A model generated the notes under the pieces. That model ran no database searches. It was not told the origin of the DNA and saw only the letters and a list, made by a program, of their open reading frames with translations. Source: Promethearchaeota archaeon (GTDB lineage: Archaea; Asgardarchaeota; Lokiarchaeia; Sigyniarchaeales; SOKP01). From it: a stretch of 64,000 nt of DNA. Where the stretch lies: NCBI GenBank assembly GCA_048938855.1, contig JBHLLT010000003.1, positions 96,001-160,000 on the forward strand. The letters are read 5' to 3'. Below, piece after piece: positions 53,743-55,330 of this stretch (position 1 is the first letter of the stretch; each line of letters begins with the position of its first letter). The position numbers and the translations under genes were made by a program.

Positions 53743-54000
53743 TTATTTAGTGAATTCTTTCATTACCATATGAGTATTTGATGCTGTAATTCCATCAATC
53801 ATATCTATTTTATTCGCAAATATTTCATACAATTCTTCGGGTGTTTCTACGACAACTTCTGCCAAAGCATCATAATCACCTGTCAGAGACAGTACTTTCG
53901 TAATTTGAGGAATACTTTTCAACTCTTCAATTACAGGCTTAATTACACTAATCCCTAATTTGCATAGAATAATAGCTTTTATTACCATATTATTTACCAT
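53743..54000 (-). CDS. Stand-alone Lrp/AsnC ligand-binding (RAM) domain protein
   Basis: 85 aa: KAIILC...LKSIPQITKVLSLTGDYDALAEV...I..IDGI..SNT; no HTH. Confidence 0.88.
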   Translation of the reverse strand: MVNNMVIKAIILCKLGISVIKPVIEELKSIPQITKVLSLTGDYDALAEVVVETPEELYEIFANKIDMIDGITASNTHMVMKEFTK

Positions 54001-54010
54001 CTCTCATTTA

Positions 54011-55330
54011 TTATGTTGGGGTTTTAACAACTTTATTAATAAATAAAATCTCAATATCTTTAATTTCATTTAACGGCTTTATTCTTAAATTTATGAGGTT
54101 ATAAAAATCTTTTATTGAACTTGTTTTTACATTCAAGAGCAAATCATGAGCTCCAACTAAAGCATATGTAGAAATAACTCCATAGTATTTAAAAACTCGT
54201 AATGTAATTCTATTGATTGACCCTTTTTCTAACTTCAATAATAAGATTGCTTGAACCAAATTCTTTACTTCATGAGAATAACGAAGTATAAATGTAAAAA
54301 CTAAAAGGAATATAACAATGATCAATAACTCATAAGGAAAATATTCATTTACAAAAATTACTGAAAAAATTATAGATCCCATAGGATCTATTAAATTCAA
54401 AATACTATTCCATTGACTATATGTTAAATTTTCTGATTTCCAATTAACATTTGCGATAAAAATTAAGAGATATGGGATTATAGTTGTAAAAATAATTAGA
54501 AAAATTATATCCCATCTTCCCAAAATCATTAAGATGTCCTTAAACTGAGAAAAAAAAGTTCCTATTTCATTGGATAGAATCGTTTCAAAGGGGATGATGT
54601 AGATTATTAATACAAATGGCATCATGCATATTACTCCAAATAAAAAAGAAAGAGACATTTTAAGGAGAAATCTAGGTATTTTATAATTCCGGTTTTTATT
54701 AATGATAATCGTCTCTTCACTTGAATATGCATCTCTGTTGATAGCTACATAGAGAAATGAGATTGAAATACTAAAAATTAGTAGATAAATTATTCCATTT
54801 AACATCACCGGGGTACCTCTCAATGCTGCTCCAATACTACCTACAAATATTAAAATAATGATTGTGAAAAAGAGTAATATAATATAGAGTACTTTAAAAA
54901 CGTCAAATCTCTCAAAATTCACCCCTTTTTCATAAAAAGCAATAAAAATAACGCTTAAGAGAAATCCGATCATTGTAAATGTAATTGAGGTCGTCTTTAA
55001 AGTTAAGAAGAAAAATATTATGTTAAGAATTATCCCAAAAAAGCCCAAATATAGATAATATAATATATTTTTTATATCAAAAAACCTTCGGTTTTTATGA
55101 AATAAATTAGAAAAAAGAAACATAAGAGGTATAGATTCGTTACGAGTAAATCTATTATTAATTATTACAAGAACAACAGCTAAAATTAATAAAGCTATAC
55201 CAGAAATTAAAAACCTTAAAAAAATAACCATAATAATTGATATATCTAAAAATAAATCCTGCACAATTATAGGGATAAAACCCCATAATAAATTTGCTAA
55301 GACTATATTAATAATTAGTTTATTCTGCAT
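54011..55330 (-). CDS. EamA/DMT-family transporter fused to a C-terminal Lrp/AsnC (RAM) domain
   Basis: About 10 TM with LLWGFIPI, FLRFLISG and LIDPMGSIIFSVIFVNE (DMT signatures). C-terminus QAILLLKL...GVISTYALVGAHDLLLNVKT...I..L.EI is RAM-like. Confidence 0.8.
   Translation of the reverse strand: MQNKLIINIVLANLLWGFIPIIVQDLFLDISIIMVIFLRFLISGIALLILAVVLVIINNRFTRNESIPLMFLFSNLFHKNRRFFDIKNILYYLYLGFFGIILNIIFFFLTLKTTSITFTMIGFLLSVIFIAFYEKGVNFERFDVFKVLYIILLFFTIIILIFVGSIGAALRGTPVMLNGIIYLLIFSISISFLYVAINRDAYSSEETIIINKNRNYKIPRFLLKMSLSFLFGVICMMPFVLIIYIIPFETILSNEIGTFFSQFKDILMILGRWDIIFLIIFTTIIPYLLIFIANVNWKSENLTYSQWNSILNLIDPMGSIIFSVIFVNEYFPYELLIIVIFLLVFTFILRYSHEVKNLVQAILLLKLEKGSINRITLRVFKYYGVISTYALVGAHDLLLNVKTSSIKDFYNLINLRIKPLNEIKDIEILFINKVVKTPT

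Follow-up and report, generated by a model that had tools for sequence, protein, structure and literature searches.

Why does a membrane carrier end in the sensor domain of a transcription regulator, and what is a second copy of this domain doing in the gene next to it? The question is raised by two genes in the window (the whole stretch of 64,000 nucleotides that was analysed), one encoding a DMT/EamA-type carrier core fused to a C-terminal RAM domain, the ligand-binding domain of Lrp/AsnC regulators, and the other a RAM domain standing alone (Table 1). An earlier note on this DNA had described them as a DMT protein of about ten TM segments ending in an Lrp/AsnC ligand-binding domain and an HTH-less RAM protein downstream of it, and both descriptions are borne out by the coordinates of the open reading frames, by the peptides quoted from them and, for the fusion, by the folds. 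In the literature searched, where coverage of subscription journals is limited and an earlier mention is possible, no DMT-RAM fusion has been described, in agreement with the note, which knew of no system with this architecture.

Table 1: Features of the DMT-RAM locus, in positions of the window.
Feature	Position	Strand	Details and basis
Stand-alone RAM gene, without HTH	53743..54000	(-)	Longest ORF 85 aa; 81 aa with the more probable start at 53988; Pfam, PDB sequence matches
Intergenic spacer	54001..54010	(-)	10 nt if the first ATG is used, 22 nt with the probable start 53988
DMT-RAM fusion gene	54011..55330	(-)	439 aa + stop; ORF, Pfam EamA + AsnC_trans_reg, homologues, AF2
DMT/EamA carrier core, residues 1-357, 10 TM, N-in/C-in	54260..55330	(-)	Hydropathy, AF2 helices, VIA-align, Lys/Arg counts, dN/dS
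Fused cytoplasmic RAM domain, residues 358-439	54014..54259	(-)	Pfam, VIA-align to DM1, secondary structure, dN/dS
Fused-RAM G-x-x-D loop, G393-A-H-D396	54143..54154	(-)	Family conservation; putative role from the Grp-glutamine structure (PMC2504300)
Free-RAM G-x-x-D loop, G41-D-Y-D44	53869..53880	(-)	Family conservation
Free-RAM S74-N-T76, counterpart of Grp T132/T134	53773..53781	(-)	Conservation, HMMER alignment; putative role from PMC2504300

Results and Discussion

Architecture of the two proteins

Using Pfam, EamA (PF00892) was detected at residues 6-161 of the fusion with 39.4 bits (cut-off 28.2), which covers the first EamA repeat, the second one not being detected. Hydropathy revealed 10 TM segments, and residues 1-357 of the AF2 model (pLDDT 88, pTM 0.82) show the ten-helix DMT fold (5+5), as VIA-align aligned 273-290 of them to SLC35B1 (9i20, Z 23.2), TPT (5y78, Z 21.8), LicB (7paf, Z 21.6) and YddG (5i20, Z 19.4). 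The core belongs to a very divergent DMT branch, its profile having found few relatives without the tail. With 17 Lys/Arg residues in the loops of the predicted cytoplasmic side versus four on the opposite side, the topology is N-in/C-in and the RAM domain cytoplasmic. That the core transports a substrate is what we infer for it.

The sequence match of the tail to AsnC_trans_reg (PF01037, residues 365-431) is marginal with 26.2 bits at a cut-off of 25, and its RAM identity was therefore settled by the AF2 structure. In this model residues 359-430 follow the order b-a-b-b-a-b and superimpose on the stand-alone RAM proteins DM1 (2e1a; Z 14.7, rmsd 0.9 Å over 75 residues) and TTHA0845 (2djw; Z 14.8, rmsd 1.4 Å over 79 residues), so that the tail does adopt the RAM fold assigned to it in the earlier note. 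Also in the AF2 model, the TM10 helix (333-357) passes with almost no linker into the RAM strand 359-367, and E354 at this junction is invariant.

The protein encoded downstream consists of the RAM domain alone and matches AsnC_trans_reg with 56.1 bits, covering residues 20-82, which together with its length of 81-85 aa makes it a stand-alone RAM protein of the DM1/STS042 type. Its PDB sequence matches are best for the FL11 PH1519 and DM1 class and include 2djw, 2cvi, 2e1a and 2zbc. As its orthologues begin at the second Met (M5), the later of the two starts is the probable one; the spacer of ten base pairs claimed earlier thus holds for the longest ORF, but the orthologue starts favour the longer spacer. 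No HTH family of Pfam matched either protein, and in NCBIfam neither gave an equivalog, the regulator models matching via their RAM part only and far below cut-off.

Distribution and conservation

The homologues, of about 439 aa each, make up more than 250 clusters, most of them with a precomputed PF01037 assignment, and an assembly artefact or chimeric ORF could be ruled out as the open reading frame is uninterrupted in hundreds of independent assemblies. All of the approximately 45 full-length clusters (50% identity) possess the tail and nearly all are Asgard-labelled, with full-length matches in families f1-f7 of the class plus f9. Checking both domain architecture and conservation of the gene pair, we could show that the fusion, rather than being unique to this assembly, occurs throughout the class and in few members beyond it. 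One or two free RAM genes lie next to the fusion in 28 of the 33 assessable loci. The exceptions, four loci of family f4 and one of f9, have the fusion with no free RAM gene next to it, and therefore the partner is not universally adjacent. Within the genus, 17 of 54 genomes contain both genes, always side by side, and the other 37 contain neither, showing that the module is accessory.

All parts are under purifying selection. For the carrier core, conserved from end to end, dN/dS is 0.06-0.16; the fused RAM has values of 0.08-0.23 and the free RAM of 0.03-0.16, the latter being the most constrained part in close comparisons (0.03-0.05). Fusion and free RAM protein thus form a conserved module.

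Probable pairing of the two RAM domains

Two natural single-chain DMT-RAM-RAM proteins were identified, P0130/P0276 (541 aa) and P0277 (552 aa), and their second RAM groups in the free-RAM clade (support 95/90). P0130 was folded from an alignment without the free RAM rows, as these rows pulled the fused RAM of the family onto its second RAM. In the resulting AF2 model the two RAM domains (residues 350-541) are predicted to pack as a canonical Lrp/AsnC RAM dimer, matching NirDL (4czc) with Z 16.9 and rmsd 2.2 Å over 158 residues covering both RAMs, versus an alignment of 75 residues only for the model of the fusion with a single RAM. We judged the docking of the second RAM by this superposition, as the pTM of 0.72 (vs 0.82) could not decide. 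The dimer geometry predicted for the module is that of this distant single-chain relative, whose second RAM is represented by only two aligned sequences, and it is possible that AF2 simply reproduces RAM dimers from its training. Taken together, the fused and the free copy probably pair into one sensor.

The free RAM protein could also be a mere operon-mate of the transporter gene which regulates something else, be it an enzyme or transcription. Stand-alone RAM proteins are indeed widespread without transporters, and the genome encodes another one (contig C41, 98-aa frame). This is nevertheless very improbable in view of the perfect co-presence and co-absence of both genes over the 54 genus genomes, the persistence of their adjacency across families in which the other neighbours vary, the two natural gene fusions and the canonical geometry of the predicted dimer.

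Adjacency, co-occurrence in the genus, the single-chain fusions and the P0130 model also bear on the idea that free and fused RAM domains co-assemble into a cytoplasmic ring. These four independent lines speak for the co-assembly but not for the ring, pointing instead to a 1:1 heterodimer per protomer, and a gating ring like that of RCK was not adopted. The domain shows the ferredoxin-like RAM fold and not the Rossmann-type fold of RCK domains, no ring was seen, and the analogy is one of logic only.

A putative ligand site divided between two copies

In the structure of Grp with glutamine the G-x-x-D loop (G99/D102) holds the amino group of the ligand and the T-x-T pair T132/T134 its carboxylate (PMC2504300). 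The loop is present in both RAM copies. In the fused RAM its G is kept by 32/32 and its D by 30/32 family members; in the free RAM, G occurs in all 19 readable sequences and D in 16/20. A Ser/Thr pair is found in the free RAMs (14/20 at the first position, 20/20 at the second), and HMMER aligned the S-N-T of the free RAM to the T-H-T of FL11. The fused RAM lacks the pair and has I427/I429 in the pairwise alignment, with no conserved Ser/Thr across residues 424-431 of the fused family. Judged by these motifs, the G-x-x-D half is all that is left of the putative ligand site in the fused RAM, and both halves are present in the free RAM. A ligand specificity is not readable from the sequence, FL11 as the nearest solved RAM matching at 27 bits only.

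The loss of the Ser/Thr pair from the fused RAM would also fit a RAM pair which does not sense anything and which, as a dimerisation or capping domain, only helps the carrier to fold, to be stable or to oligomerise. This explanation has further points in its favour, as f4 does without a free RAM gene next to the fusion and as some proteins of the Lrp family are predicted not to bind amino acids (PMC2995911). We consider it unlikely, although to be taken seriously, since the free RAM retains both halves of the motif and is the part with the strongest constraint among close relatives, and since the nearly invariant G and D of the fused RAM have their importance in contacting the ligand, not in the fold.

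Genomic context

In the window the gene pair converges on kamD/kamE and a PHP-domain gene. The convergence on a lysine cluster reported earlier is therefore correct for this locus, but the neighbourhood is kept among close relatives only: kamD/kamE are adjacent in six of 34 loci, all from f1, and the f2 loci adjoin genes for a Ras GTPase, MazG and an FGGY kinase. For this reason we did not adopt a lysine-specific role, and the proposal of lysine, arginine or ornithine as ligand is not supported. Amino-acid-related neighbours do occur in several lineages, namely a class-III aminotransferase with an amino-acid (carbamate-type) kinase, lysine aminomutase, Asp/Glu racemase and Opp ATPases. A promoter and terminator scan was uninformative, with 15 sites versus 14.8 expected; its motifs are of bacterial type and the genome is archaeal.

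The context is also informative with regard to a membrane-anchored sensor (transceptor), in which the DMT core would sense or anchor and the RAM module would recruit or release HTH-containing Lrp/AsnC regulators, with transcription as the output. In vitro, stand-alone DM1 assembles with full-length FL11, a regulator, into hetero-octamers (PMC2995911), and of the 13 RAM-domain matches in the genome nine are in open frames with the size of full-length Lrp/AsnC regulators, about 148-190 aa. However, no HTH-Lrp gene is a conserved neighbour across the 34 loci, which also speaks against the sequestration of Lrp-type regulators suggested in the earlier note. Moreover, the partner itself has no HTH and has been fused onto the carrier in two lineages, which argues for a closed two-part module, and the carrier core is conserved over its full length under purifying selection. 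A transceptor is thus clearly unlikely.

Proposed mechanism

We slightly favour the reading that the two genes encode a metabolite-regulated secondary carrier with a heteromeric RAM sensor. The free RAM protein, presumably co-transcribed, would be the dedicated partner of the fusion, one free and one fused RAM completing the canonical two-subunit barrel, for which one tail is not enough. The ligand site would be divided, the fused copy contributing only the loop for the amino group and the free copy in addition the Ser/Thr pair for the carboxylate. The ligand site of Lrp/AsnC proteins has been placed between RAM dimers (PMC2995911), and therefore binding of a cytoplasmic amino acid or a close metabolite would alter the association of the RAM modules with each other; as a single heterodimer has no dimer-dimer interface, ligand binding would need a higher assembly. 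The change in association may then pass through the rigid TM10-RAM junction to the carrier and act as a switch for transport, by which export would be activated or uptake inhibited from inside. Both ligand binding and its transmission to the carrier are steps that we infer.

More tentatively, and with somewhat less than even confidence, one might go further and see here the first metabolite-gated carrier of the DMT/SLC35 type, in which a stand-alone RAM protein would be an obligate transporter subunit and the site would be split between a degenerate tethered RAM and a complete free one. Amino-acid binding would control docking of the free subunit and, via the rigid TM10 junction, transport, so that the module would be a largely Asgard-confined, post-translational counterpart of the transcriptional Lrp-EamA circuit. 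Asgard archaea live by amino-acid fermentation and their physiology is of wide interest. With two genes for 439 and 81 aa the module is small and thus amenable to expression in E. coli.

Comparison with known systems

With the 10-TM DMT carriers, such as the amino-acid exporters of the YddG/EamA type, LicB, the plastid TPT and the SLC35 nucleotide-sugar and nucleotide carriers, the fusion has the fold of residues 1-357 and the cytoplasmic location of both termini in common. In contrast to the fusion with its RAM tail, none of the solved carriers that were matched aligned past the core and no RAM-like tail was seen in them. To our knowledge no DMT carrier, including human SLC35 proteins and the amino-acid exporters of fermentation strains, has a built-in allosteric sensor. 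Control by a direct metabolite switch would be a mode of regulation not described for this transporter class, and a ligand-switched member, if confirmed, could serve as a model for regulating the DMT fold.

Stand-alone RAM proteins are common in archaea and several of their structures have been solved. [quoted passage not shown] FL11-DM1 is a known mixed assembly of a free RAM with a RAM-containing partner, and the physiological role of stand-alone RAM proteins is still called unclear (PMC2995911); if our reading is true, it would give them a concrete job. There are also clear differences. Full-length Lrp/AsnC regulators carry an N-terminal winged HTH, which the fusion and the free RAM protein both lack, and therefore the output of the module cannot be DNA binding. 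Furthermore, half of the putative ligand site is gone from the RAM copy that is anchored to a membrane carrier, and for a subunit anchored in this way an octamer, as is typical of the family, would be an awkward arrangement. The sensor domain of Lrp/AsnC would thus have been re-used outside transcription for the direct control of membrane transport.

NirDL/AhbAB, the Lrp-like siroheme decarboxylase that gave the best structural match when the two-RAM unit of the single-chain relative was compared, is a precedent for a one-chain RAM pseudo-dimer in a non-transcriptional role but, unlike the DMT-RAM proteins, it is a soluble enzyme which keeps HTH-like domains and has no transporter. In P. aeruginosa the Lrp/AsnC regulator PA2577 controls the divergent EamA gene PA2576 at the level of transcription (PMC8707732). 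There, the same two protein families are linked by transcriptional repression via an HTH-RAM protein, whereas here the RAM domains are found on and beside the transporter.

The same logic is found in transporters controlled by cytoplasmic sensors, such as the C2 domains of MetNI (trans-inhibition by methionine), AmtB with its co-operonic PII protein GlnK, the RCK/KTN rings and the CBS domains of OpuA and MgtE, where a fused or co-encoded small sensor reports an internal metabolite to the transporter; GlnK and MetN-C2 also have ferredoxin-like folds. The DMT-RAM module differs from them in the families to which its sensor (RAM) and its transporter (DMT) belong and in the division of the sensor into a fused and a free subunit; no ring is indicated for it.

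Results and Discussion

Both peptides quoted in the earlier note were found in two minus-strand open reading frames, namely the fusion, a DMT/EamA carrier with a C-terminal RAM (Lrp/AsnC ligand-binding) domain, and the adjoining gene for a free RAM protein. Pfam placed EamA at residues 6–161 of the fusion (39.4 bits) and AsnC_trans_reg at residues 365–431 with a marginal score (26.2 bits, cut-off 25), and the free RAM protein matched AsnC_trans_reg with 56.1 bits. As described before for the partner protein, no HTH was detected by Pfam in either protein, and matches of the two to NCBIfam regulator models were confined to the RAM parts and far under cut-off. 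The 10 nt reported between the genes hold when counted to the first ATG of the free RAM gene, but its orthologues start at the second Met and the start is therefore probably at 53988, giving 81 aa and a 22-nt spacer.

Features of the module, its surroundings and a further RAM-domain gene of the same genome (window positions unless a contig or locus is named)
Feature	Position	Strand	Remarks
PHP-domain protein, 253 aa	52971-53732	+	9 nt after kamE
Free RAM gene	53743-54000	-	ORF, 85 aa as longest frame
Fusion gene	54011-55330	-	ORF, 439 aa
Alpha/beta-hydrolase membrane protein, 654 aa	55418-57382	-	directly upstream of fusion, 87-nt gap
Penicillin-amidase-family (Ntn hydrolase) protein, 830 aa	57508-60000	-	Pfam, 414.8 bits
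Class-III aminotransferase	60215-61477		
Amino-acid kinase	61480-62397		
TBP/HTH/RAM ORF, 434 aa	window's genome (G000), contig C49:227089-228393 = L046:2590-3894	-	Pfam

Hydropathy analysis gave ten TM segments for the fusion, and its AF2 model, built from a 32-sequence alignment (pLDDT 88, pTM 0.82), shows ten TM helices, with helix 333–357 passing directly into a β-α-β-β-α-β domain at 359–430. In structural alignments of this model residues 1–357 matched SLC35B1 (9i20, Z 23.2), TPT (5y78, Z 21.8), LicB (7paf, Z 21.6) and YddG (5i20, Z 19.4), and the tail matched the stand-alone RAM proteins 2djw (Z 14.8, rmsd 1.4 Å, 79 residues) and DM1 (2e1a, Z 14.7, rmsd 0.9 Å, 75 residues). The superposition backs the marginal Pfam score with structure and predicts a RAM fold for the tail, in line with the reading of the protein as a DMT carrier of about ten TM helices ending in an Lrp/AsnC domain. 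With 17 Lys/Arg on one side of the membrane and 4 on the other, both termini, and hence the RAM domain, are predicted to be cytoplasmic.

The combination of EamA and AsnC_trans_reg is not unique to this assembly, as about 45 full-length clusters (50% identity) came out of an exhaustive profile search; all of them keep the tail, and the score drops sharply after them. A word-indexed search returned more than 250 homologous clusters, and the best 120 of these are mostly 434–464 aa long with a few shorter fragments, are mostly pre-annotated with PF00892 and PF01037, and carry only organism labels of Asgard MAGs. In a sample of 400 genomes of the phylum, full-length matches came from most genera of the family to which the window belongs, from the three other families of its order, from three more families of the class and from one family elsewhere (f9), and the remaining families had RAM-length matches only. 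The labelled divergent members that we looked up belong to Promethearchaeota, except one protein labelled Korarchaeota. One single-chain member is labelled Spirochaetota and looks like a real bacterial copy, because its 112-kb contig has a uniform GC content of 66% and bacterial-type neighbours. Three weak relatives of the DMT core without a RAM tail (P0185, 692 aa; P0190, 829 aa; P0193, 1238 aa; E 1e-17 to 1e-21) have long extensions in which Pfam finds no significant domain, and these may be other fusion partners for this unusual carrier branch.

The fusion and the free RAM gene together are the unit. The free RAM gene lies directly downstream of the fusion in all 11 same-genus loci fetched first, and a free RAM gene, or a pair of them, adjoins the fusion at 28 of the 33 assessable loci of a wider set (34 loci, one cut by a contig end). 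Loci of family f2 have two downstream, and loci of a paralogous type have one upstream and in some cases another downstream, while none is adjacent in family f4 (four loci) and in one f9 locus; the other neighbours vary between lineages. The module is accessory in the genus of the window, where 17 of 54 genomes have it: those with the fusion are exactly those with a free-RAM orthologue (E below 1e-15), the two genes always stand side by side, and the other 37 genomes have neither. Approximate dN/dS values against the window copy, with dS near saturation, were 0.06–0.16 for the carrier core, 0.08–0.23 for the fused RAM and 0.03–0.16 for the free RAM.

Several observations suggest that the two RAM copies act together. 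Two natural proteins, P0130 (541 aa, in two assemblies and identical in length to NCBI MBN8215563.1) and P0277 (552 aa), join the DMT part and both RAM domains in one chain, in the order DMT, degenerate RAM, linker and canonical RAM. A tree was built from 56 RAM domains; it has 84 columns only and does not resolve the paralogous type. One clade (support 95/90) unites the free RAMs with the second RAM domains of the two single-chain proteins, that of P0277 falling among operon-proximal free RAMs (95/87), and the fused RAMs are separate (31 rows, 91/33). This topology indicates that the single-chain proteins arose by fusion of the neighbouring partner gene. The AF2 model of P0130 (pLDDT 85, pTM 0.72) has both RAM domains folded and a disordered linker at 433–459. 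Their packing was assessed indirectly, by structural alignment to single-chain tandem proteins: NirDL, a tandem Lrp-like enzyme, spans both RAM domains (4czc, Z 16.9, rmsd 2.2 Å, 158 residues, model 350–541; 4ch7, Z 17.0), as do further single-chain dimeric α+β barrels, whereas in the control NirDL aligned with the window's single-RAM model over 75 residues only. Thus, the predicted arrangement in this relative of the window's proteins is the canonical RAM dimer. Fusions of the f2 type (L012, L013, L018, P0122, P0126, P0130, P0277) carry after the fused RAM a conserved short motif, roughly D-R-x-x-P-x-x-x-K-G-x-S-x-x-x-R, which sits in the linker ahead of the second RAM in single-chain forms and is missing from the window's fusion.

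In the Grp–glutamine structure the loop G99-x-N101-D102 binds the amino group of the ligand through D102 and backbone atoms, and T132 and T134 of a neighbouring subunit bind its carboxylate (PMC2504300); the pocket lies between dimers, with two ligands per dimer–dimer interface (PMC2995911). The fused RAM keeps the glycine (G393, 32/32) and the aspartate (D396, 30/32) but lacks Ser/Thr at the T-x-T positions. Free RAMs have the glycine in 19/19, the aspartate in 16/20 and Ser/Thr in 14/20 and 20/20 at the T-x-T positions, followed by His in 17/20, and S-N-T of the window's free RAM aligns with T-H-T of FL11 (HMMER). These counts point to a complete predicted site in the free subunit and a half site in the tethered one. 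Such a split site fits a ligand bridging RAM modules, which would need the proposed assembly to be larger than one heterodimer.

The pair indeed converges on the lysine aminomutase cluster, with the PHP-domain gene ending 10 nt from the free RAM stop, so that the transcription units meet with almost no spacer. On the other side follow the membrane α/β-hydrolase, the penicillin-amidase-family gene, whose product has a lipoprotein-like N-terminal signal, the aminotransferase and the kinase. The last two recur in 11 loci, all of family f1 except the f2 locus L045, and kam genes in six, all f1; as these are nearly all f1, the shared context mostly reflects inherited synteny. In three loci the gene after the module encodes an Asp/Glu racemase, and in f9 there are Opp ATPase genes on its flanks. 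A connection with amino acids is plausible, but a lysine-specific role is not supported, with kam genes only in those six loci and unrelated neighbours in f2. The hydrolase (N-terminal signal or anchor, S33/S9-like domain at about 60–250, long multi-TM C-terminal half) occurs in only 4 of 34 loci (the window, L026, L033, L044) at varying positions and is thus ruled out as a module part. Near the module f2 genomes also encode a Ras/Roc-family small-GTPase protein of 600–640 aa with a C-terminal zinc ribbon (L012:98-2017(+) and homologues).

Comparison with known systems

The window's genome has 13 RAM-domain matches. One outside the window, a 434-aa ORF, combines a RAM domain (41.5 bits) with a TBP repeat (residues 192–262, 51.5 bits) and a winged HTH (HTH_24). 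This apparent TBP–Lrp/AsnC fusion is interesting in that archaeal activators of the Lrp type, Ptr2 for example, work by TBP recruitment. It is well established that sensor modules in the cytoplasm can regulate transporters (MetNI, AmtB-GlnK, RCK, CBS), and our literature search found no description of a DMT carrier bearing a RAM domain. According to a review (PMC2995911), it is still unclear what role stand-alone RAM proteins play, and EamA genes have been described under the transcriptional control of Lrp/AsnC regulators (PMC8707732).
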